Shown: positions 1,456 through 18,921, counted from the stretch's first letter. The stretch: DNA of 64,000 nucleotides from an uncultured bacterium (GCA_903857865.1 CAIOGO010000020.1:43064-107063), one strand, 5' to 3'. Program-made: numbers and translations. Notes: generated from the letters alone by a model not told the origin.

Positions 1456-2838
1456 CTACTTGTGCACCCGGCGCAGGAACTCCTCGATCTCGGGCATGCC
1501 GCCCTGGAAGATGAGGTACCCGTCGTGCGGTTCGCGCTCGGTGATCTCGCCGGCGATCGGTGTCAACATCAGTTCGCGCACGCGTTCGAGGTCGCTCGTT
1601 TGGCCGAGGGCCCACGCAAGCTTGATGTAGGCGACCTCGGGGAGCATGTTCTCGGTGGGGATGATGCCCTTCGCCATCAGGTCGCGCCCGGTGTCGTAGA
1701 CGAACATGTGGACGTAGCCCCACAGGGTTTGCACGGTCATGTAGATGGCCACGCCAGCGGCCACGGCGCGCTCGATGGCGGGATAGACGGGTTTGTTGAT
1801 GTGCCCGAGCCCTGTCCCGGCGATGACGATGCCCTTGTACCCGTGCTCGACGAGCGAGTCGATGATGTCGGGATGCATGTTGGGGTAGTAGTAGGTCAGC
1901 GTCACCCGCTCTTCGAAGAAGGGCAGGATGTCGACGTGCCGGTCGGCGCGGCGGTGCGCGTAGTCCTGGCGCAGCGGCTTGACCCCGTCGCGCGTGACGG
2001 TGGCGAGCGGGATGTCGCCGACGGTGCGGAAGGTCGAGCGGTAGGACGAGTGCATCTTGCGGACGCGTGTCGCGCGGTGCAGCAGGCCGTACTCGTCTGA
2101 GGTCGGGCCGAACATGCACACCATGACCTCGGCGATGTCCGACGTCGCGGCCGTGGTCGTGGCGTGGATGAGATTCCGCGCCGCGTCCGACGACGGGCGG
2201 TCGGCCGACCGCTGCGAGCCGACCATGACGATCGGCACCGGCGAGTGCTGCACCATGAACGCAAGCGCGCTCGCGGTGTGGTGCATCGTGTCCGTCCCGT
2301 GGCCGATGACGATGCCGTCGATTCCGTTCTCGATCTCGCGGCCGATCGCCTTGGCGAGCTCGATGTACTGCGACGGCCCCATGTTCTCGGAGAAGACAGC
2401 GAACAGCTTCTCGGTCGAGAGGTTGCAGATGTCGGCCAGCTCCGGGACGGCGCCGTACAGCTCGCCGGGCGAGAACGCGGGGATCACCGCGCCGGTTCGA
2501 TAGTCGAGACGCGACGCGATCGTCCCTCCCGTGCCGAGGAGCTTGACGTTGGGCTTGTCTGGCGATGTCGGGAACTCCTTCTCTGGGATCTTGTAGTGCG
2601 CTTCGCGGCGGCCCAGTTCCTGGATCGCGCGGATCGTGCGCACGTCGATGCCGACGTTGTAGCCCGTGGCGAGCTTGAGGACGAGGTGGCGCGAGTCGTC
2701 GAATTCGGAGCGCGGGAGCACGATCCCGCGGAAGTGGCCGCGCGTCGACTCGACATCGACGTCGCTCCAGACCCCCACCTGGAATCGCGTTAGGACGTCG
2801 AGAGCCTCGCCCTTGTAGCCCTTGTGGGCGTCGCTCAT
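1456..2838 (-). CDS. gatD: Glu-tRNA(Gln) amidotransferase subunit D (asparaginase-domain, archaeal type)
   Basis: Asparaginase signatures LLGTGGTIAS and GIVIGHGTDTM; ATG at 2838 overlaps upstream gatE stop as ATGA; ORF track extends 7 codons further to GTG at 2859. Confidence 0.8.
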   Translation of the reverse strand: MSDAHKGYKGEALDVLTRFQVGVWSDVDVESTRGHFRGIVLPRSEFDDSRHLVLKLATGYNVGIDVRTIRAIQELGRREAHYKIPEKEFPTSPDKPNVKLLGTGGTIASRLDYRTGAVIPAFSPGELYGAVPELADICNLSTEKLFAVFSENMGPSQYIELAKAIGREIENGIDGIVIGHGTDTMHHTASALAFMVQHSPVPIVMVGSQRSADRPSSDAARNLIHATTTAATSDIAEVMVCMFGPTSDEYGLLHRATRVRKMHSSYRSTFRTVGDIPLATVTRDGVKPLRQDYAHRRADRHVDILPFFEERVTLTYYYPNMHPDIIDSLVEHGYKGIVIAGTGLGHINKPVYPAIERAVAAGVAIYMTVQTLWGYVHMFVYDTGRDLMAKGIIPTENMLPEVAYIKLAWALGQTSDLERVRELMLTPIAGEITEREPHDGYLIFQGGMPEIEEFLRRVHK

Positions 2839-4775
2839 CGTGTCGCCTCCTCGACCCACGCCGCGGTGTCGCGGAGCGGGACGTTGCCCATCGCGAGCGG
2901 GCGGATGCAGCCCATCAACGCGCGAACGCGCGCTTCCGGTTCAGGATGGCGAGCGACGAACGCCTTGGCGCAACGAGCGATCTGCGCGCGGATCTCCTTC
3001 GGCGTCGCCTTTCGGTAGCCGACGCGGCCGAGAAGGTCGTCGAACGTCGCGGCCGGCTCGAGAAGCGCAAGCGGCACGAGGAGTCGCAGGATCTCACGAG
3101 TAAGGTCGCGCTCTGCCGCCTCGACGATGACCCAGCGCACGCGCTCGACGTCGATCTCGCGGGCGCCCATGGCGTGCCGGACGTTGTGGCCGAGGAGCGT
3201 TGCCGCGAACGCGGAATCGACCTTGCGCTCGACGAGCCAGGCGAGGGTCGGCGATAGGTCGCGGCGGAGGATGTAGGCGTGCACGTCCTCGGGAGCGCTC
3301 CAGGCGCGGAGCGCCGCCATCCGGCGATCGACGGACTCCGGCAGGCGGGCGCGCGTTCGCTCGATCGCCTCTTCCTCGATCGGGATCGGCGCGGAGTCGG
3401 TGTCGGGGTACATGCGGTCCGGACCCGGCAGCACCCGCTCGAAGATCGTCGTCCCGTTGGGAAGCCCCTTGCGTGTCTCGTTGGGTACGCCTTGGAACGC
3501 GAGGCGGCACCGCTCGACGAGCGTGTCGACGGCGGTCGGGAGGTCAGCCGCCGGGCCCCAAACGAGGACGACTCCGTCATTCGACTTCGCGCCAACACGG
3601 ATCGCCAGCGTCCGCCACGCGGCGGGCGAGATGGCCGAGGCGGGTTGGTCGGGGTGGGCGAGATTCGGCACCGCGATGCAGGCCACAACCTTCAGTCGAT
3701 CGGAGAACTCGTCGGCGAACGTGCGCCCCGGGTTGGTGAAGAACGACAGGAGGCCGCCGAAGCGCGGCAGCCGAAAGATCACCGCGGACGCTGTTGACGG
3801 GACGATGCCGTCGACGAGATGGCGATCCGCATCGCCGAGGGGGACGTGCGTCGCCGTCCACGCGGTGGGGGCGCTCACGCGTCGCCGGAGCTCATCGCGG
3901 ATGAGCAGAAGAGCCTTCTGACGGAACGCCTCATTGTGCGTCAGCTCGGGGATCCAGCGGATGTGTTGCACACCCTTGATCTCGACTCGGGTCCCGCCCT
4001 CGACGCTGACGTTGACGTCCTCGCGCGCGGCGCCGATGCCCACGTTGACGTGCCGCGTGCTGCGCGCAAGGTAGCGAATGTAGTTCGCCGCTTCGGCCGC
4101 CTCGTCCGGGGTCAGAAGCTCGGGCTCCGTCACCGTCTCGATGAGCGGCATGCCGAGGCGATCGGTCGTGTAGGTTCGCTCGTGCCCCACGTCGCTCACC
4201 TCGCGGCACGAGTCCTCTTCGACGCTCAGCTGACGCACGCCGACGCGCTTGCCGGCGACGGGCAGATGGCCGTCGATGCCGATGATCGCCGTGCGCTGGA
4301 ATCCGGTGGGGATGCTGCCATCCAGGTACTGCTTCCGCGCGATGTGGAGCTCGCCGACGATGCTCGTGTTGAGGAGCAGGGCGACCTCGATCGCAATGTC
4401 GATGGCCTGTCGGTTGACGGCGAACGGCGGGGTATCGTCGATGTCGTACGTGCACGCCGTCTCGCCCTTGATGCGGTAGATGATATTCTTCTTGGTCTTG
4501 TACTCCATGAGCGCCGTGCCGTCGTACTCGCCCAGTTCGCTCAGCGTTGGGCGCATGTGGCGGACAAGTTGGGCGTCGTAGTCGTCGCCGTCCTGGTAGT
4601 GCCCGGCCGGGCAGCGGCAGAAGAGCTTCTTCGTCGTGCGGAGTTGCTGGTGCACCTCGAGCCCGCAGCGGAACCCGAGCGTGCGGTAGGTTTCCTGCGT
4701 CGCCTCGGCGCGGCGGACGTAGCCGAGGAGATTGTGGCTGTCCGGATTCTCGGAGATCGCGTCGTCCTTCTTCAT
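2835..4775 (-). CDS. gatE: Glu-tRNA(Gln) amidotransferase subunit E (GatB/E catalytic domain plus AspRS-like insertion domain)
   Basis: GLEVHQQL motif near N-terminus, long insertion domain, translationally coupled to gatD; start set at MKKDD (aa 36 of track ORF 2835..4880). Confidence 0.8.
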   Translation of the reverse strand: MKKDDAISENPDSHNLLGYVRRAEATQETYRTLGFRCGLEVHQQLRTTKKLFCRCPAGHYQDGDDYDAQLVRHMRPTLSELGEYDGTALMEYKTKKNIIYRIKGETACTYDIDDTPPFAVNRQAIDIAIEVALLLNTSIVGELHIARKQYLDGSIPTGFQRTAIIGIDGHLPVAGKRVGVRQLSVEEDSCREVSDVGHERTYTTDRLGMPLIETVTEPELLTPDEAAEAANYIRYLARSTRHVNVGIGAAREDVNVSVEGGTRVEIKGVQHIRWIPELTHNEAFRQKALLLIRDELRRRVSAPTAWTATHVPLGDADRHLVDGIVPSTASAVIFRLPRFGGLLSFFTNPGRTFADEFSDRLKVVACIAVPNLAHPDQPASAISPAAWRTLAIRVGAKSNDGVVLVWGPAADLPTAVDTLVERCRLAFQGVPNETRKGLPNGTTIFERVLPGPDRMYPDTDSAPIPIEEEAIERTRARLPESVDRRMAALRAWSAPEDVHAYILRRDLSPTLAWLVERKVDSAFAATLLGHNVRHAMGAREIDVERVRWVIVEAAERDLTREILRLLVPLALLEPAATFDDLLGRVGYRKATPKEIRAQIARCAKAFVARHPEPEARVRALMGCIRPLAMGNVPLRDTAAWVEEATR

Positions 4776-5185: not shown

Positions 5186-6205
5186 ATGATGTCCCTGAGA
5201 TTGCCTGAAGGATACACCGATCGTCCGGCCCGGCTGTCCGATGCCGAACCGCTGACGCAGATGTTCAACGCCGACTCCCAACGCCTGTTCGGCGTGAACC
5301 AGCATGACGCCGAGAACCTCGCCACCGAATGGCAGACGCCCGGATTCGATCTGGGCCGCGACACCCGCGTCGTGCTCGCACCGTCGGGAAAGCCGGCGGG
5401 GTACGCCGAAGTCTGGGATACGGACGCGCCCCACGTCCGGCTCTGGAGCTGGGGCTGCGTCGACCCGCAGGAGCGCGGCCGCGGCGTCGGCTCCACGCTC
5501 GTCGCTTGGCAGGAGGGGCGCGGCCGCGCGGCGCTCGACGTGGCGCCGTCTGGATCTCGCGTCAGTCTGCGCCAGTCGGTGTCGAGCCTAGACGAGCCTG
5601 CGGGACGTCTCCTTGAGTTCAGCGGGTACGCGGCCATTCGCCACAACTTCCAGATGAAGATCGAACTGGACCGGGCCACGCCGGCGCCTGTGTGGCCAGG
5701 CGGGGTCACTGTTCGGACCTTCGACCCAGCTCGCGACCTTCTCCCGATGGTCGAAGCCATCCGGGCCGCATTCCGCGACCACTGGGGCTACGTGGAGTCG
5801 CCTCTCGAAAGCAGCCTTGCCGTCTGGCGCCACATCGTGACCGAAGAGAAGAGCTTCGATGCAAGCCTCTGGTTCCTCGCGGAGCACGACGGCGACATCG
5901 TCGCCGTGGCTTTGTGCTCGGCGATGGAGCCGGAGGACCCCGACCTTGGCTACGTGAACACGCTCGGCGTCGTCCGGCCGTGGCGCCGGCGAGGAATCGG
6001 ACTCGCGCTCCTCCATCACGCGTTCGCGGAACTTGGGCGCCGGGGCAAGAGGCGCGTCGCTCTCGGCGTCGATGGTGCGAGCCTTACCGGTGCCGTCCGC
6101 CTGTACGAGCGGGCAGGAATGCACGTCGAGCGGCGCCGCGTCCTCTACGAGAAGGAACTCCGCGCCGGGGTGGATCTGACGACGCAAAGCCTGGAGACGT
6201 CGTGA
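5186..6205 (+). CDS. Two-domain GNAT N-acetyltransferase (mycothiol-synthase-like architecture)
   Basis: Two acetyl-CoA-binding-like segments (QERGRGVGSTLV and RPWRRRGIGLALL); RBS GAAGGAAG before ATG at 5186 (track ORF starts at 5000). Confidence 0.8.
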   Translation: MMSLRLPEGYTDRPARLSDAEPLTQMFNADSQRLFGVNQHDAENLATEWQTPGFDLGRDTRVVLAPSGKPAGYAEVWDTDAPHVRLWSWGCVDPQERGRGVGSTLVAWQEGRGRAALDVAPSGSRVSLRQSVSSLDEPAGRLLEFSGYAAIRHNFQMKIELDRATPAPVWPGGVTVRTFDPARDLLPMVEAIRAAFRDHWGYVESPLESSLAVWRHIVTEEKSFDASLWFLAEHDGDIVAVALCSAMEPEDPDLGYVNTLGVVRPWRRRGIGLALLHHAFAELGRRGKRRVALGVDGASLTGAVRLYERAGMHVERRRVLYEKELRAGVDLTTQSLETS

Positions 6206-7986
6206 AACTGCCGCTTCGAGAAGGGCTGACCCTGCTTGGCCGCTACGTGCGGCCCCAAGCGCGCTGGGTCGTCGCGCTCGCCGCCCTCGTCCTGGCGACA
6301 ATCGGCCTTCGCTTGGCGAACCCGCAAATCCTGCGAGAGTTCATCGACACGGCGATGGCCGGGGGAGAGCGTGCGGTGCTGATCCGAGACGCCCTCCTCT
6401 TCTTCGGCATCGCGGTCGCGGCCCAGCTCTTGTCCGTGGCGGCTACCTACGTCGGCGAGACCGTCGCTTGGTCGGCGACCAACGCGTTGCGCCTCGATCT
6501 CCTTCGGCACGCCTTGGCTCTCGACGCGACCTTTCACAAGGATCACACGCCAGGGCAGCTCATCGAGCGCATCGACGGCGATGTCGCCACGCTGTCGAAC
6601 TTCTTCTCACGCTTCACGATTGACATCCTCGGCAACGCCATCCTGGTGGCCGGTATCATCGGGCTCTTGTTCCGCGAGGACTGGCGCATCGGCCTACCGA
6701 TCCTCGCATTCGCCGCCTTCACCGTATGGCTGCTCGGGCGCATCCGCAAGGTCGCCGTCCCGCACTGGACCGCCTACCGCAAGCTGGTCGCCGAGTTCTT
6801 CGGATTCCTCGGAGAACGCCTCGGCGGGACGGAGGACCTCCGGGCGAACGGTGCCGTCGGGTACACGTTGCGGCGCTTCTTCGCGTTCTGCCGCCGTCTC
6901 TTCCCGGCGTACCGCTGGTCCAGCGTCGCCGGGTACTCGATGTGGATAGCCAACGTCGCCCTGTTCACCGGCGGGTTCGCCATCGCCTTCGGCGTGGGCG
7001 CCACCCTGTGGAGAGCCTCGATCATCACGCTCGGCACCGTGTACCTGGTGTTCCACTACACGGAGCTTCTGCAGGGCCCCATCTCGCAGATGCGCGAGCA
7101 GATCACCGATCTCCAGCGCGCCGAGGCCGGGATCCGCCGAATCCGGACCCTGCTTGCCGCGTCGTCCGCGATCCGCGACGAGGGCAAGTCGGCGCTCCCC
7201 GACGGCCCGCTCTCGGTTGCGTTCGAGAGCGTCACGTTTGCCTATCAGCCGTCGCGCCGCGAAGACGGACCCGCCGAAAACGAGCCCGAGCCGACCGCCG
7301 CCCTGCGCGACGTCCGGCTCACCGTGCCCGCGGGCACGACGCTCGGACTCCTGGGGCGCACGGGAAGCGGCAAGACGACCCTTGCGCGCCTCGTCGCGCG
7401 TCTCTACGACTGCCAGCAGGGCGTCGTCGAGGTGGGCCGCATCCCCGTGGCCGACGTCCCGCTCGCCGACCTCCGCCGCCGCGTGCGGATGGTGTCTCAG
7501 GATGTGCAGATCTTCCGCGCCTCGGTGCGCGAGAACGTCCGCCTGTTCGACCCAACGGTGTCCGACGAGCGGATCCTCGCCGCGTTGGGCGAGCTCGGCC
7601 TGCGCGACTGGGCGCTGGCCCTGCCGCAGGGACTCGACACGGTCGTCGGAACGTCTGACGCCGGGCTGTCGGCCGGGCAGAGCCAACTCCTCGCCTTGGC
7701 GCGGGCTTTCCTCGCGGACCCCGGTGTGGTCATTCTCGACGAGGCCTCGTCGCGCCTCGATCCCGCGACGGAAGCCCTGCTCGAACGAGCGGTGGACCGA
7801 CTCCTCGCCGGGCGCACGGCGATTCTGATCGCACACCGCCTGTCGACAGTCCGCCGCGCCGATCGGATCGCCATCCTCGAGGACGGCCGGGTCATCGAAT
7901 CTGGCGAGCGCGAGGCGCTCGCCCGTGACCCACACTCCCGCCTCGCTCGGCTCCTGGAGACCGGAATGGAGGAGGTGCTCGCGTGA
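6202..7986 (+). CDS. ABC exporter, fused permease/ATP-binding protein (heterodimer partner 1)
   Basis: N-terminal TM segments; Walker [10 protein letters not shown], signature LSAGQSQLL, Walker [10 protein letters not shown]; GTG start overlaps GNAT stop as GTGA. Confidence 0.85.
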
Positions 7987-9761
7987 GCCCGCTCGCGGCC
8001 TTCGTCCGTCTGATCCGCTTCCGGCCCTGGCTCTACGCCGCGGACGCCGTGGCCTGGTCGGCCATCATGCTGACCGAGCTCGGCGCCGGCTACGTGGCCA
8101 AGCTCTTCTTTGACTCGATCACGGGCAACGCGGCGGCTGGCCTGACGCTCGCGTCAGTCGTCGCCCTTGTGGCCGGCGCGGGGCTCGCCCGCATCGTCTC
8201 GATCCTCGCGGGGGCCCTGATCGACATCCGACACCGATTCTCGATCCGCGTTCTTCTGCAGCGCAATTTGCTCGCCTCGGTGCTCGCTAAGCCCGGCGCC
8301 CGCGCCCTCCCCGGCGCCGTCGGGGAGGCGCTCAACACCGTGCGCGACGACGTCGAGGTCGTCGAGAACCTCCTCAGTTGGCTGATCGACCAGTTCTCGT
8401 TCGTGTCTTATTGCGCGGTTGCGCTGGCCATCCTGCTCAGCATCGATGCGCGCGTGACGCTGGTCGTCGTGCTTCCGCTCGTCCTGGTCCTCATCGGCGC
8501 CCGCGCCGTCTCCAAGCGAGTTCGCCGGTTCCGAGAGGCGAGCCGCGCCGCGACCGAGCGCGTCACCGGGGCGATTGGCGAGGCGATGGACGGCGTTCAG
8601 GCGATCCAGCTCGCCGGCGCGGAGGAGCACGTGGTCGCGCACATCGAGGGGCTGAACCGCGTGAGGCTGCGCGCCGCCGTTCGCGACCGCCTGTTGTCGC
8701 AGTCGTTCCACTCGTTCTTCTGGAACGCGGCAACGCTCTCGACCGGCCTGATCCTTCTGGCAGCCGCGGACGGTCTGCGGAGCGGAACGTTCACGGTCGG
8801 CGACTTCGCCCTCTTCGTCACCTACGTCGGCGTCCTCACCGAGGTGATTGCCGCGTTCGGCGACTTCCTCATCCACTTCCAGCAGGCGAAGGTGTCGCTC
8901 GAGCGTATGGCCGCGCTCATCGAGGGCACGCGCGCCGACGTCGTGGCGCACCACCCGATTCATCTGACGGGGCCGCTTCCCGACGCCGCCGATGCGACCG
9001 GCCCCCCTGAGCCCCTGGAACGCCTCACGGTCGAGGAAATGACCGTTCGCCCCGCCCCGGCCGGCGACTTCTCGCTCGATCGCGCCTCGTTTTCGATCGC
9101 GCGGGGTGAGTTCGTCGTGGTGACCGGCCGGATCGGCGCCGGGAAGTCCACCCTGGTACGCGGTTTGCTCGGCCTCCTCCCCATCGAAGGGGGGCGCATT
9201 CTGTGGAATGGACAGGTTGTCGTGGATCCGGGCTCGTTCTTCGTCCCGCCCCGCTGCGCCTACACGCCCCAGGTCCCTCGGCTGTTCAGCGAGAGCCTAC
9301 GCGACAACCTGCTCCTGGGGCAGGAGGTTGCCCAGGGCGATCTCGACGGCGCCGTCCGCCTCGCTGTGCTCGAGGACGACATCGCACGGTTTGAGAACGG
9401 CCTCGACACGATCGTTGGACCCCGCGGGGTCAAGCTTTCCGGCGGTCAGCGCCAACGCGCGGCGGCGGCGAGGATGTTCCTGCCGAATCCGGAGCTCATG
9501 GTGCTCGACGACGTGTCGAGCGCGCTCGACGTCGAGACCGAGCGGGCGCTGTGGCAACGCGCGACTGCCCTTTCCGGCCGGACGTGGCTTGTGGTGTCCC
9601 ACCGACGTCCAGTGCTGCGGCGCGCGGACCGCATCCTCGTCCTGAAGGATGGGCGGATCGACGCCGAAGGTACGCTCGACGAGCTCCTCGCCACGAGCGA
9701 CGAGATGCGTCGACTTTGGCACGGCGAGGCCGGCGGCGAGGCGGAAGCGGCGGGAGAGTGA
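7983..9761 (+). CDS. ABC exporter, fused permease/ATP-binding protein (heterodimer partner 2)
   Basis: TM domain then Walker [10 protein letters not shown], signature LSGGQRQR, Walker [10 protein letters not shown]; start overlaps upstream stop as GTGA. Confidence 0.85.
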
Positions 9762-9862
9762 CGCGCATCACGTTCATCTAGTCCCGAATTGACTTTCCGC
9801 GTTCCCGCGTGTAGCCTCGTCGCGGGGAAAGGGGAGGGGCCGCGCGCGGAGGTGCGCAAGCA

Positions 9863-10630
9863 ATGAACAACACGTTCGTGATGTGGCTCGTTGGCGCCGC
9901 CATCGCGGGCTTAGGCCTTCTCCTGCTCCTCGGAACGCCCGCCGGCGTCTCAACGGAGGCCGCGGGCTCTTCCGCACTCACAGCGAATGGCGCGTCTCCC
10001 GCATCGGAAACGACCTACTGGAAAGACGCAACGCCTGCATCGATCGCCACGGCCCCGACGGCCCTGCTCCTGGCGGCGCCTACAGCGTGCCCATCCTGCG
10101 GGACCGTATCCATGCACGCCAACACCGCTGCGACTCTTGCGGCCCCTGCGCCGTGCTCGTCGTGTGCGGTCACGTCTTCGCGGGCAACCGTCGTTGCATC
10201 GTTGCCGGTCGGCAGCTGCGCCGCTGCGGTTCCGCAAAGGGGGCTGGCCGGGGGATGTGGCCTGTCGATCGCTCCGTGCGCCGAGACCCCGTGCCGCGCG
10301 TTGACCGCCTCCTGCAACCTCGCTTGCGGACCCGAAGTCCCGTGCCGAGACCGCCCCGGGATCAACCGGAACGGCCCGATGTGCGTGGACGAGTGTTCGT
10401 TCGTGCAGCTCTACTCGACGGTCCCTCTGCCCGCCTGCAGCGCGATTCACTTCGCGTGGGCAGCCACTCGAGGTCAATTCCTCGACCCGGCGGCGCCCGA
10501 CCCGATCTACTATGCGCCCGGATCGGCGTTTCCCGGAGGAGAGGACGTCCTCGTCACGCTGACCGTAACGGATGCGCAGGGCAACGAGTACTCCGACCAG
10601 ATCAAACTGCACGTCAACAACTCGCGGTAG
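9863..10630 (+). CDS. Cysteine-rich (20 Cys) secreted or membrane-anchored protein with C-terminal beta-sandwich-like segment, unknown function
   Basis: Hydrophobic N-terminus MWLVGAAIAGLGLLLLLG; G/C-rich third positions unlike the Arg-rich overlapping frames; multiple CxxC/CxC spacings. Confidence 0.6.
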   Translation: MNNTFVMWLVGAAIAGLGLLLLLGTPAGVSTEAAGSSALTANGASPASETTYWKDATPASIATAPTALLLAAPTACPSCGTVSMHANTAATLAAPAPCSSCAVTSSRATVVASLPVGSCAAAVPQRGLAGGCGLSIAPCAETPCRALTASCNLACGPEVPCRDRPGINRNGPMCVDECSFVQLYSTVPLPACSAIHFAWAATRGQFLDPAAPDPIYYAPGSAFPGGEDVLVTLTVTDAQGNEYSDQIKLHVNNSR

Positions 10631-10662
10631 CCGAGCCGAAGCCGCCGGGAGATGGGGGACGC

Positions 10663-11265
10663 ATGACTCGCATTCGGGCGGCGCTTCTCGACATGGACGG
10701 CACGATCTTCGATTCGAAGATCGATTTGGGTGCCGTTCGCCGCGTCCTCGGCCTGCCGCGCGACGGACGTTCCTTCCTCGAACAGCTGTCCGACCTTCCT
10801 CGGGAGACACAGGACAAGGGCATGGCCATGCTCGTGGAAGCGGAAGCGCGTGGCGCTGCGGACGGCGTTCTTCTTCCCGGCGCGGAGGAGCTCATCGAGT
10901 CCCTACGAGCGCACGGCGTCCGCTGCGCGCTCGTCACGAACAACTCGCGTGCGAGCGCCGACACTGTGCTCCGGCGGCATCCGCTGCCGTTCGATCTCGT
11001 TCTCACCCGCGACGACGGCGCGGCGAAACCGAACCCCGGCATCTTCTCCGTGGCGCTCGCGCGCCTCGGCGCAACCGGGCGCGAGGCTCTTGCGATCGGG
11101 GACGCTCACCTCGACCTCCTCGCGGCGTATCGCGCCGGCGTCGCCGAGATCATCCTCGTGAGCCCACCGCCATGGGTTCTCGACTTCATTCCCGAGGACA
11201 TTCCCCATCGACGGGCGGCGGATCTGCGCGAGGCTCAGGGGATCGCCGAGTCCCTTCTTGGCTAG
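10663..11265 (+). CDS. HAD-superfamily hydrolase (phosphatase-like)
   Basis: Motif I LLDMDGTIF, motif II VTNNS, motif IV GDAHLD; start taken at MTRIR inside track ORF 9883..11265. Confidence 0.8.
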   Translation: MTRIRAALLDMDGTIFDSKIDLGAVRRVLGLPRDGRSFLEQLSDLPRETQDKGMAMLVEAEARGAADGVLLPGAEELIESLRAHGVRCALVTNNSRASADTVLRRHPLPFDLVLTRDDGAAKPNPGIFSVALARLGATGREALAIGDAHLDLLAAYRAGVAEIILVSPPPWVLDFIPEDIPHRRAADLREAQGIAESLLG

Positions 11266-11280
11266 CGTACCGCGAGCGAG

Positions 11281-12699
11281 CTACGGCGCGAGCCGCGACC
11301 AGAGGGTCCCCTGAGGCGTGTCCTTGAGTTCGACTCCCAACTCCGCGAGCTGGTCGCGAACGCGGTCGGACAAGTCGAATGCCTTGCGGGCGCGCAGTTC
11401 CCGCCGAAGTCCGACCAGGAGATCGAGAAGACCCGCCTCAATCGACGAGGACGATGCGCCCGCCGGCTGGAAGAGGCCGAGCGGCCACCCGAGTTCGCGC
11501 AGGAGCTCGACCGCATCGCGCAAGGCCAGGCGATCGATGCCTACGGCCTCGGCTCGGAAGCGATTTGTCTCGCTCACGAGGTCCTGGAGAACCGCCACGC
11601 CGTCGACTGTGTTGAAGTCGTCGTCCAGCGCTTCCACGAAGCGCTCGCGGAAGCGCGCGAGCGACTGCGAGAACGCCTGTCCGGCCGGCCCCATTTCGCC
11701 ATCGCTTTGACGCAGTTCCGCCTCGATGTCGTCGATCAGTCGGCGAACACGGGCCACCGCGGCTTGCGCGGCGCGCAACCCGTCCTCCGAGAAATCCAGC
11801 GGCTTCCGGTAGTGTCGGGAGAGGTAGAAGTATTCGACCGTCTCCGCGTCGTACGCCTCGAGGATTTGGTACGCGTAGCGGAAGTTGCCGAGCGACTTGT
11901 GCATCTCCTCACCGCCGAAGTGGAGCATTCCGTTGTGAAGCCAAAAGCGGAAGAAGGGCGCGTCGCTCGATGCCGTCGCCTGCGCGATCTCGTTCTCGTG
12001 GTGCGGGAACATGAGGTCGTTGCCGCCAGCGTGAATGTCGAGGTGTTCTCCAAGATGCGCTCGCGACATGACCACACACTCGGTGTGCCAGCCCGGCCGC
12101 CCCGGCCCCCACGGCGACGGCCACTCGGGCTCGCCGGGTCTAGCTGCCTTCCACAGGGTGAAGTCGAGCGGATCCTCCTTCGACTCGGATACCCTGACTC
12201 GCGACCCCGCCTCTTGGTCGGCGAGCCGCCGCCCGGACAGCGCGCCGTAGTCGGCGACGCTTGCGACGCGGAAGTACACGTCGCCATCTCGCTCGTAGGC
12301 GTGGCCCTTCTCGACGAGGCCGGCGATGAACTGCACCATCTCCTCGACGTAGTCCGTCGCGAGGGGACTCGCCGTGGGCCGGTCGACCCCGAGCGCTTCG
12401 AGAAGGTCGAAGTAGGCGCGCGTGTACGTCTCGGCGATCGTCGCAACCGTCTGGCTGGTCTCGATCGAGCGCTTGATCAGCCGATCGTCGATGTCGGTCA
12501 CATTCTGCACGTAGAGGACGCGCCATCCCTTGAAGCGCTCGAAGTAGCGACGCAGCGCGCTGAACACGAGGACGGGACGAACGTTTCCGATGTGCAGGTG
12601 GTCGTAGACGGTGGGGCCACAGACGTAGATCCCTACGGTCCGGCCGTGTTGCGGTGCAAAGGGATCGAGGCGCTTCGTGAGTGTGTTGTAGAGCTTCAT
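11281..12699 (-). CDS. cysS: Cysteine--tRNA ligase
   Basis: HIGN (HIGH) motif, class I synthetase KMSKS-like HKSLGN, typical length. Confidence 0.9.
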   Translation of the reverse strand: MKLYNTLTKRLDPFAPQHGRTVGIYVCGPTVYDHLHIGNVRPVLVFSALRRYFERFKGWRVLYVQNVTDIDDRLIKRSIETSQTVATIAETYTRAYFDLLEALGVDRPTASPLATDYVEEMVQFIAGLVEKGHAYERDGDVYFRVASVADYGALSGRRLADQEAGSRVRVSESKEDPLDFTLWKAARPGEPEWPSPWGPGRPGWHTECVVMSRAHLGEHLDIHAGGNDLMFPHHENEIAQATASSDAPFFRFWLHNGMLHFGGEEMHKSLGNFRYAYQILEAYDAETVEYFYLSRHYRKPLDFSEDGLRAAQAAVARVRRLIDDIEAELRQSDGEMGPAGQAFSQSLARFRERFVEALDDDFNTVDGVAVLQDLVSETNRFRAEAVGIDRLALRDAVELLRELGWPLGLFQPAGASSSSIEAGLLDLLVGLRRELRARKAFDLSDRVRDQLAELGVELKDTPQGTLWSRLAP

Positions 12700-16216: not shown

Positions 16217-17116
16217 TTATGGCGCTGTCCTCACGAGGCGGAAGCCCAGGTTGCCGAGCTCGTAGTCGGGCCAGTAGTTCCCGCGATTCGCGACGCGGCA
16301 GCCGTTCGCGTAGACGTACCAGCTGCCGCCGCGTAGCACGCGGTCCGTCCCCGACGCCGGGCCACGCGGGTCGCTGCCGGACGAGGACGCGTAGGTCGAT
16401 TCGCCGTACCAGTCCCAGCACCACTCCCACACGTTCCCCGCCATGTCGTAGAGGCCGTACCCGTTCGGGGCGAAGCACCCCACAGGTGTCGTCCCGTCGT
16501 AATAGCCGTTGTAGTTCGCGCGGCTCTCGTCGATGTCGCTCCACGGGTACCGCCGTCCCGCGGCTTCGCCCCGCGCCGCCTTCTCCCACTCCGCCTCCGT
16601 CGGGAGCCGATAGCCGCTTGCGCTCCAGCTGCAGTTCGGGGTGCTCTCGCCCGTGCGGTACACGCTCCCACTCTCCGTGTAGCACGGCTCGAGCCCCTCC
16701 TTCTCGCTCCTCGCATTGGCCCACTTCACCGCCTCGTACCATGTGACGTTGTACACCGGATGATCCGTCGCCTTACCCTCCCCATCTGCAGGCCCGATGT
16801 CGTAGCCGTGAGCCGCCGCCCAGCTCGCGACCTCGTCCCACAACGCCTTCGTGATCTCGTAGCGGTCCATGGTGAACGCGCTTGCCGCCACCGTGTGCAC
16901 TGGGAGCTCGTCGGAGTACCCGTCGCCGAAGCTATCGCCCATCTGGAAACTGCCCGCCGGAATCAAGACCATCTCCACTGCCCTGTACTCCGGTTGATCC
17001 GCGGGCACTGACGCTTGCGCGGCGGGCAACCCATCTACGTTTGCCGCCACCGCGAGCGCCACGAGCACGCCACGCAAGATCCCTCTTCCCGCTTGGCTTT
17101 GTTCCATGATGAGCAT
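16217..17116 (-). CDS. Formylglycine-generating enzyme (FGE-sulfatase) family protein, secreted
   Basis: N-terminal signal-like segment; FGE-family stretches RGGSWY, GFRLV, YGLYDMAGNVWEW. Confidence 0.75.
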   Translation of the reverse strand: MLIMEQSQAGRGILRGVLVALAVAANVDGLPAAQASVPADQPEYRAVEMVLIPAGSFQMGDSFGDGYSDELPVHTVAASAFTMDRYEITKALWDEVASWAAAHGYDIGPADGEGKATDHPVYNVTWYEAVKWANARSEKEGLEPCYTESGSVYRTGESTPNCSWSASGYRLPTEAEWEKAARGEAAGRRYPWSDIDESRANYNGYYDGTTPVGCFAPNGYGLYDMAGNVWEWCWDWYGESTYASSSGSDPRGPASGTDRVLRGGSWYVYANGCRVANRGNYWPDYELGNLGFRLVRTAP

Positions 17117-17982: not shown

Positions 17983-18921
17983 CTACTCCTCCACGGAGAC
18001 GACGATCTCGTCGTAGTACACCTGGCACGCCTCCGTCAGGCTCTCGTCCCCGAGGAGGAGCCACGTCGTTGCCCCGCGGCTCGGGTCCGCGTCCATCGTT
18101 CCGGTCTGCCACACGGCCCCGTCGACAGAGAACTCGTACTGGCCTGCCGAGTAGGAGAACGCGTACGTGTGCCACTCATACACCGGAGGCGTGAAGGCCA
18201 CGGGATGGCCGACCTCCGTTCCCGCGGCCGACGGCTCTCGGATCACCGACCCGCCGTACGTGCTCGAGAAGACGTAGTACGGAAGCCCTACGGGCGGGAG
18301 ATCCATCCCGCTCCGCCCGGGCGCGATGACGAACGTGTGTTGGCCCTGCGTTTGGAGCGGCATCGCTCGGACGGAGAAGACGACCCGTTGGCCGATGCGA
18401 AGCGGCGGGAGATCCAGGCGCGTCGCGCGGCGATGGAGGGTCTCCGTCGCGCTGTTCACGTACAGCACGTGGCCTGGCCCGCCGCTGATGGACTCGATGC
18501 GGCTCTCGCCTTGGACGGCCCACGTCGGGTCGAGCGGCCACCGCCCGAGGGCCGCGTCGCCGTCCGAGAACTCCTCGAGGAAGAGTCGCGTGCCGCTGCG
18601 TGCATAGACTGTGAGATCCTTCTCGATCCGCTCTGTCCGTCCCTGCCCATCCTCGACGGTGAGCCGGACGGTGTAAGTGCCCGGCCGAGCGAACGTCGTG
18701 GTCAGTGTCCGTCCATGTTCGACGAGGCCGTTTACGTCCCAGCGGTAGTCGACGATGTCGCCGTCCGACGGGCTGCCGTCAAGGTCGACGCGGTCGCCGG
18801 CGTACACCACCACGGGGCGGACGTCGAAGTCCGCCACCGGCGGCCCCACGAGCAGCGCGCAGCCACCCAGAGCGAGCACGATGACCGCGACGGTGAGAAG
18901 GCTGGACGCAGCTCTCCTCAC
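17983..18921 (-). CDS. Lipoprotein with PKD-like domain
   Basis: Signal peptide with lipobox LALGGC; PKD-like segment GDRVDLDGSPSDGDIVDYRWDVNG...YTVRLTVEDGQG. Confidence 0.65.
   Translation of the reverse strand: MRRAASSLLTVAVIVLALGGCALLVGPPVADFDVRPVVVYAGDRVDLDGSPSDGDIVDYRWDVNGLVEHGRTLTTTFARPGTYTVRLTVEDGQGRTERIEKDLTVYARSGTRLFLEEFSDGDAALGRWPLDPTWAVQGESRIESISGGPGHVLYVNSATETLHRRATRLDLPPLRIGQRVVFSVRAMPLQTQGQHTFVIAPGRSGMDLPPVGLPYYVFSSTYGGSVIREPSAAGTEVGHPVAFTPPVYEWHTYAFSYSAGQYEFSVDGAVWQTGTMDADPSRGATTWLLLGDESLTEACQVYYDEIVVSVEE

Follow-up and report, generated by a model that had tools for sequence, protein, structure and literature searches.

A conserved Candidatus Bipolaricaulota gene for a protein with a single hydrophobic helix, a cysteine core and a divergent PKD domain, probably of the cell envelope

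The window analysed here is a stretch of 64,000 nucleotides from an uncultured bacterium (GCA_903857865.1, CAIOGO010000020.1:43064-107063), and the gene under study lies near its beginning, on the plus strand. The genes before it run in the order gatE (minus strand), a GNAT acetyltransferase and two half-transporters of the ABC_membrane plus ABC_tran type, while on its 3' side follow a HAD-IA hydrolase, a convergent cysS and an ABC-2 transporter. The features of the gene and of its nearest downstream neighbour are collected in Table 1.

Table 1. Coordinates of the features at the locus, counted from the first letter of the window.
Feature	Position	Strand	Details and basis
Complete coding sequence	9863..10630	+	ATG..TAG, 255 aa plus TAG; Bipolaricaulota family protein
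GGAGG, putative Shine-Dalgarno-like site	9848..9852	+	10 nt 5' of the ATG; read from the sequence
Single hydrophobic helix, predicted transmembrane or signal anchor	9875..9931	+	residues 5-23; Kyte-Doolittle, AlphaFold2
Low-complexity Ala/Ser/Thr/Pro-rich linker	9941..10243	+	residues 27-127; CxxC 76/79 and 98/101, C119; composition
Conserved cysteine core	10244..10378	+	residues 128-172; 37-member alignment
Divergent K319L-like PKD domain (predicted immunoglobulin-like beta-sandwich)	10379..10618	+	residues ~173-252, with C174, C178 and C192
HAD-IA family hydrolase gene	10663..11265	+	32 nt downstream, same strand; TIGR01549 and TIGR01509 above cut-offs

Several other genes of the region deserve a short description. 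The GatE gene (2835-4772, minus strand) scores 394 bits against TIGR00134 gatE_arch (cut-off 319.55), and in related loci GatE is adjoined by GatD with its PF18195 GatD_N domain (L001 1608-4924, L007 1-2680); GatD and GatE are the archaeal-type Glu-tRNA(Gln) amidotransferase pair, present here in genomes labelled Bipolaricaulota. In one clade (L004 / L031 7660-9820) the gatD-like gene encodes a shorter product (389 aa, GatD_N not on record) and the adjoining 262-aa product is without a Pfam match and has just 39% identity to GatE; this pair may be a decayed or rearranged gatDE. Further along the window, a signal-peptide protein (16217-17116, minus strand), whose resemblance to formylglycine-generating-enzyme/GldK-type domains stays under the family cut-offs, is encoded with the ABC-2 transporter gene on one side and a HAD-IIA phosphatase gene on the other. 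The N-terminus of a second PKD-type protein (17983-18921, minus strand, 312 aa) looks like that of a lipoprotein (MRRAASSLLTVAVIVLALGGC), and the protein contains a canonical PKD motif; it has no NCBIfam match, and its counterpart in L001 matches PF00801 and PF18911.

The first-pass annotation of this DNA had placed a 255-residue protein at positions 9863-10630, and the corresponding ATG..TAG reading frame was found. The G+C content at codon positions 1, 2 and 3 of this frame is 0.61, 0.62 and 0.78, respectively; the value at position 3 is high, like that of the neighbouring genes (0.83-0.87), while the value at position 2 is unusually high compared with 0.43-0.47 in the same neighbours, because the composition of the protein is rich in Ala, Pro, Thr, Ser, Gly and Cys. 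The frame had been chosen earlier on codon bias, which the excess at position 3 bears out, and the homologues settle the matter. A 460-aa Arg-rich ORF (9883..11265, plus strand) lies across the gene; this is the HAD frame, which stays open 5' of the true HAD start at 10663, and it makes an annotation trap in a high-G+C genome. The N-terminus MNNTF..W is kept among the homologues, and the start codon is fixed by this conservation. A consensus scan of 9600-11400 gave neither a sigma-70-like promoter nor an intrinsic terminator, and as TTGACT-17-TAGCCT, seen by eye upstream, does not pass that scan, no promoter is claimed. An Rfam scan of 9500-11400 (E up to 1) returned no match, and a repeat search around the gene gave just two short, chance-like matches.

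In a search of 5.8 billion proteins, 26 homologues were obtained, mostly full-length and from 95% down to 39% identical, none of which carries a Pfam domain or any name beyond "hypothetical protein"; the exact window protein is present under that same label in NCBI, JGI, ENA and Logan assemblies. When genomes were scanned (one genome per species), the gene was present in 27 of them, most labelled Candidatus Bipolaricaulota or Bipolaricaulis and the others labelled uncultured Thermotogae, Thermotogota, Atribacteria, Krumholzibacteriota, or simply bacterium. The family alignment (L-INS-i) comprises 37 non-identical full-length members. Across it, the N-terminus is conserved as MNNTFxxW..GA, and a C-terminal block is highly conserved as RPxINRNxPxCVDECSFxQL...F.W.A.rG.FLDP....P.YyAP.t.f.GGEDV.itLtVtD..G..YsDqi.LHV. 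The first-pass annotation had considered that a lack of homologues with conserved cysteines would point to a spurious frame; 11 cysteine positions are conserved in these 37 members. The cysteines stay invariant in full-length homologues that are as little as 39% identical, which puts the feature beyond chance; judged by this conservation, the ORF is a genuine protein-coding gene kept in Candidatus Bipolaricaulota.

The C-terminal domain could be assigned by profile and fold comparison. An exhaustive phmmer search against 1.84 billion representatives returned 107 proteins, many of the longer of which are matched only by residues ~165-253 of the window protein, often in 2-12 tandem stretches. 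The matches to tandem PKD repeats reach E values down to 1e-63, and Pfam scores PF22352, PKD_4, Big_9 and PKD at the same coordinates (phmmer and Pfam, respectively: 155-255 and 171-253 in P0059; 131-215 and 132-208 in P0061; 608-690 and 607-688 in P0066). With hhalign, the family C-terminus aligned to 18 repeats that pass the PF22352 cut-off (probability 99.4%, E 2.1e-21, 77 columns). AlphaFold2 models residues ~173-252 as a seven-strand beta-sandwich (pLDDT 81-98), and Foldseek on this confident model returned Sde0182 (3.7e-5) and the PKD domain of AAVR (KIAA0319L; 4.3e-4), as well as the KIAA1837 PKD and the PKD domains of ColH and ColG. The C-terminal domain of Sde0182 is Pfam PF21027, which co-matches the same PKD-repeat proteins. 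The beta-sandwich-like tail suspected in the first-pass annotation (VLVTLTVTDAQGNEYSDQIKLHV) lies at residues 229-251, where the model has beta strands.

The same ~80 residues align profile-to-profile with verified members of the K319L-like PKD (PF22352), PKD_4 (PF18911) and Big_9 (PF17963) families, share with the K319L-like group the signature W...G.F......Y.AP....GE.V.ltLtVtD..G..ysD.i.lhV, and are predicted to adopt the same seven-strand immunoglobulin-like sandwich, of which KIAA0319L/AAVR and Clostridium histolyticum ColG and ColH are solved examples. Unlike these tandem arrays, the window protein has a single copy, which holds three conserved cysteines, forms one chain with an N-terminal helix and a conserved cysteine core, and is too divergent for the Pfam HMM threshold. 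Indeed, the window protein does not reach the PF22352 gathering score and has neither a Pfam family nor an NCBIfam match at E values up to 10; Pfam and NCBIfam scans of 23 family members gave nothing significant, with one weak Big_9 match (E 0.17) in Pfam, and a PDB sequence profile search gave chance-level esterase matches only (E about 0.7). As neither library gives a match, the PKD assignment rests on the profile-profile and fold evidence, and by these sequence and model comparisons the domain is a divergent PKD subtype that escapes current Pfam models. In the paper collection searched, no article combines Bipolaricaulota with the PKD domain.

A shared plan was recognised in relatives from metagenomes (P0037, P0039, P0057, P0063, P0067, P0071, P0075 and P0080), which have the same kind of N-terminal helix free of Lys and Arg (M..n.W..G..vvG), Pro/Cys-rich linkers (e.g., CPPVPPCPP and PICPPVVV repeats) and, at the end, the same divergent subtype (..EGG.iqL.G.v.dP.C...F.W.A.KG.F.Dp..L.P.Y.AP....GGE...ItLt..D), which Pfam also misses, for example in P0037, P0067 and P0075. 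These relatives differ in having one to five extra canonical PKD domains and in their gene neighbourhoods, and, judged by sequence architecture, the plan is reduced in the window protein to its minimal form with one domain. Other proteins matched by phmmer join PKD repeats with VWA and RTX domains. The neighbourhoods of the wider relatives are mutually unrelated and give no functional clue, with the exception of a single NikR neighbour: the two-PKD protein P0067 (L041) is encoded divergently from a NikR-type regulator gene (RHH_1 plus NikR_C; genes 202-618 on the minus and 802-1848 on the plus strand), which, on a single 2.2-kb contig, is only a hint of a link to metal.

Between the helix and the PKD domain lie the linker and the cysteine core. 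The middle of the protein had been described as rich in Ala, Thr and Pro, in agreement with the composition of residues 27-127 (A27 S14 T13 P9). In the first, full-length AlphaFold2 run, pLDDT was <50 over residues 27-175 and the linker was predicted to be disordered; its length and sequence vary among homologues, with one CxxC kept in 34-35 of the 37. The cysteine-rich character that had been reported is real, although the protein has 14 cysteines (residues 76, 79, 98, 101, 119, 132, 139, 144, 151, 155, 161, 174, 178 and 192) and not 20, and the "many" CxxC-like spacings come down to two CxxC (76/79, 98/101) and two CxxxC (151/155, 174/178). Neither CxxC has a His after it, which excludes the haem-binding motif CxxCH.

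The pattern of the core is LxGGCGxPxxPCxxxPC...CxxxCx(3-5)C..RPxINRN. C132, C139, C144, C151 and C161, like C174, C178 and C192 of the next domain, are found in 36-37 of the 37 members and C155 in 34. An insertion hot spot lies between C144 and C151; insertions there extend in some members to about 90 residues with further CPxC and CGHxxCGH motifs, and some members have a duplicated LVGGCG[YR]PsxPCgxxxC unit. Even with an alignment of 49 sequences, in a second and deeper AlphaFold2 run, the pLDDT of the core was 52-64. The linker and core resemble antibody-hinge-like Pro/Cys linkers and the Pro/Thr-rich linkers of bacterial extracellular enzymes in being rich in Ala, Thr, Pro and Ser with repeated Pro-Cys, and likewise in being predicted as disordered between an anchor and a globular domain; the likeness is an analogy of composition only. 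A cysteine-rich RiPP precursor (SCIFF, ranthipeptide) was considered and rejected, as the protein has 255 residues with a folded domain and its neighbours (the ABC pair, HAD, cysS and the ABC-2 transporter) include no maturase.

It seems doubtful that such a stalk is held by disulfides alone. The number of cysteines is even in 25 and odd in 12 of the 37 members, and as these sequences are partly redundant the parity is too weak to serve as a disulfide signature; moreover, the number of positions conserved in the family (11) is odd. Mixed parity together with this odd number does not support a purely disulfide-bonded stalk, and for this reason an alternative reading stays, although we consider it unlikely: an extracytoplasmic metal-binding or redox protein, in which the conserved cysteines and the Cys/His-rich insertions would chelate a metal (Ni, Zn, Cu or an Fe-S cluster being the candidates) or shuttle electrons, with the PKD domain as scaffold only. 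The conserved spacings CxxC, Cx6Cx4C, CxxxC and CxxxC are in line with it, as are insertions such as CGHPACGHATCG, which place His beside Cys, and the NikR-type nickel regulator next to one distant relative; besides, the organisms are anaerobes, as is generally known (PMC6092417), and exposed thiols can remain reduced in habitats of this kind. However, among the 23 scanned members only sub-threshold matches to DZR (0.046) and a rubredoxin-like family (0.067) appeared, each in one member, the NikR neighbour comes from that one short contig, other relatives have neighbours of unrelated kinds, the core has just 6 cysteines per 45 residues, far under the density of metallothionein, and the Pro-Cys-rich linkers of relatives (PICPPVVV repeats, P0060) resemble hinges and not metal sites. 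The wording of the first-pass annotation, a metal-binding or disulfide-rich extracellular protein, is still a fair description of the predicted protein. A bolder version, to which we give a small chance, is that the 11-cysteine core and its dedicated PKD subtype make up an undescribed extracytoplasmic metal/redox module, anchored by an unusual charge-free N-terminal helix, conserved in Bipolaricaulota and functionally coupled to the always-adjacent HAD phosphatase; if true, the module might tether the cytoplasmic membrane to the poorly understood outer sheath of these bacteria or act as a sensor between the two.

The position of these domains relative to the membrane depends on the N-terminal helix. 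A hydrophobic N-terminus had been noted before, and the best 19-residue Kyte-Doolittle window of the protein does begin at residue 5 (mean 2.5), with no other window >1.6. This hydrophobic segment, and no other, recurs throughout the 37 family members, with an average Kyte-Doolittle mean of 2.45, and the AlphaFold2 model has a helix at residues 3-22 (pLDDT 82-89). In none of the 37 is the helix preceded by Lys or Arg; over the next 15 residues, the members together count 5 K/R against 71 D/E. Neither flank is positively charged, so the positive-inside rule leaves the orientation undecided. The lack of Lys and Arg before the helix (consensus MNNTFxxW in the family) is unusual for Sec-targeted proteins and is shared by the wider multi-PKD relatives; two other exported proteins nearby in the window have Arg-rich N-termini. 

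Several standard signals do not suit the sequence. A cleavable Sec (type I) signal peptide, with a positively charged n-region, an h-region of about 7-15 residues and small residues at -3 and -1, does not fit 37 members without K/R before the hydrophobic run, nor a run of >=19 residues with no clear AxA site after it; a bacterial lipoprotein (lipobox L-x-x-C) does not fit a first cysteine at residue 76, and the G/F cleavage motif of a type IV pilin signal is missing. An anti-sigma factor was rejected, with no sigma gene nearby and the helix at the extreme N-terminus. We infer from the sequence that the helix is an uncleaved signal anchor.

PKD domains are almost always extracytoplasmic, and together with Ala/Thr/Pro-rich linkers they are hallmarks of extracytoplasmic proteins. 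In the opposite topology the N-terminus would face outward, and the cysteine region and PKD domain would be cytoplasmic, as in a zinc-ribbon-like or regulatory protein tethered to the membrane. The missing positive charge before the helix, by contrast with the two Arg-rich exported proteins, would suit this arrangement, and CxxC pairs are typical of cytoplasmic zinc ribbons. Nevertheless, the acidic C-terminal flank (71 D/E to 5 K/R) does not favour cytoplasmic retention, the PKD domain and the linker composition speak by general knowledge for the outside, and multi-PKD relatives also bear RTX and VWA domains, which are typical of secreted proteins, so that we hold the inverted orientation to be very improbable and keep to the uncleaved signal anchor.

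Gene order was compared by tblastn in fetched loci. In every locus with downstream sequence, the HAD gene and then the convergent cysS lie behind the family gene, and this universal adjacency, in terms of gene order, suggests an operon; the family gene may be co-transcribed with the HAD-IA hydrolase. A functional link to HAD is not implied, because gene order is conserved lineage-wide across the region. The upstream side is less constant. The GNAT gene and the ABC pair (~5189-9761, plus strand) form a cassette that roughly half of the Bipolaricaulota loci have between gatE and the gene for the PKD protein, and that the others lack (comparison loci L004, L019, L020, L022, L028, L030, L032 and L035), and L007 has extra GNAT copies. 

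The first-pass annotation had proposed that the protein might be the substrate of the upstream ABC exporter and had suggested co-occurrence with the ABC pair as a check. The cassette is directly upstream in 13 related loci, about half, whereas at least 10 related loci for which 2-10 kb of upstream sequence is available lack the ABC pair, and there gatE or other genes take its place. The half-transporters (592-593 aa) find their best NCBIfam models among MsbA, multidrug and type I secretion types, far below every cut-off, and neither contains a C39 peptidase domain. A role as cargo or accessory subunit of this heterodimeric exporter would agree with the gap of 101 nt that separates the gene from the second ABC gene, on one strand and free of terminator-like sites, and with the same arrangement in the 13 loci; as with a type I secretion or bacteriocin substrate, an ABC_membrane plus ABC_tran pair adjoins the gene in this genome. 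In contrast to such systems, neither a double-glycine leader nor RTX repeats nor a C-terminal secretion signal is present in the protein, which has a membrane helix of its own, the transporter is without a peptidase, no membrane-fusion or outer-membrane partner was seen, and the loci without the ABC pair still keep the gene, the HAD gene and cysS. With an adjacency that is not conserved and generic transporters without a peptidase, the substrate idea is unsupported and highly improbable, being largely refuted by the synteny; in our reading, no functional tie connects the family gene with the ABC exporter upstream of it. 

The last alternative, a spurious high-G+C ORF without a protein product, could appeal to the G+C at codon position 2, to the long overlapping ORFs in other frames and to the empty Pfam and NCBIfam results, yet that G+C is accounted for by the Ala/Pro/Thr/Ser/Cys/Gly-rich composition, and conservation at the protein level over 27 genomes (identity down to 34-39%), including the start, the helix, the cysteines and the PKD domain, together with the confidently predicted fold of the C-terminal domain, refutes it and leaves it a negligible chance.

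To hypothesize about the role, the helix would act as an uncleaved signal anchor with the N-terminus inside and the C-terminus outside, so that the PKD domain would be held beyond the cytoplasmic membrane on a stalk. A spacer of about 100 residues, predicted to be disordered, separates the helix from the cysteine core, and the Pro-Cys-rich stalk could be stiffened or cross-linked by disulfides within or between chains, as in the antibody hinge, or, alternatively, could hold metal ions. Some envelope component, either a protein or a polysaccharide, might then be bound by the PKD domain, which is the role of such domains in collagenases, chitinases, S-layer proteins and AAVR. For the anchor, the outside location, the binding role and the cross-linked or metal-loaded stalk, the argument draws on what is generally known of PKD domains and Pro/Thr-rich linkers, and on the acidity of the flank on the C-terminal side. 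Confidence differs between the parts of this proposal: the anatomy alone (a real gene, a single helix, a cysteine core and a PKD domain) we hold with high confidence, the whole statement (a single-pass envelope protein with a PKD binding domain outside on a stalk, untied to the ABC exporter) we favour moderately, and the outside-facing binding role taken by itself has roughly an even chance. On this reading, the family protein is a cell-surface protein of an ordinary kind, although one without a name.

Several consequences follow for annotation. For a protein that is "hypothetical" in all the carrier genomes examined, the label can now read putative membrane-anchored PKD envelope protein with a conserved core of cysteines, the inviting but mistaken link to an ABC exporter is removed, and a divergent PKD subtype is shown, by sequence and model comparison, to escape current Pfam models; the current understanding of PKD proteins is unchanged. 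As for the organisms, Bipolaricaulota are a phylum without a cultured representative, and the genome analysis of Candidatus Bipolaricaulis left undecided whether the envelope has one membrane or is of a simple two-membrane type, and annotated no adhesins (PMC6092417). To this phylum (Acetothermia/OP1), the family described here adds one of few candidate surface proteins.
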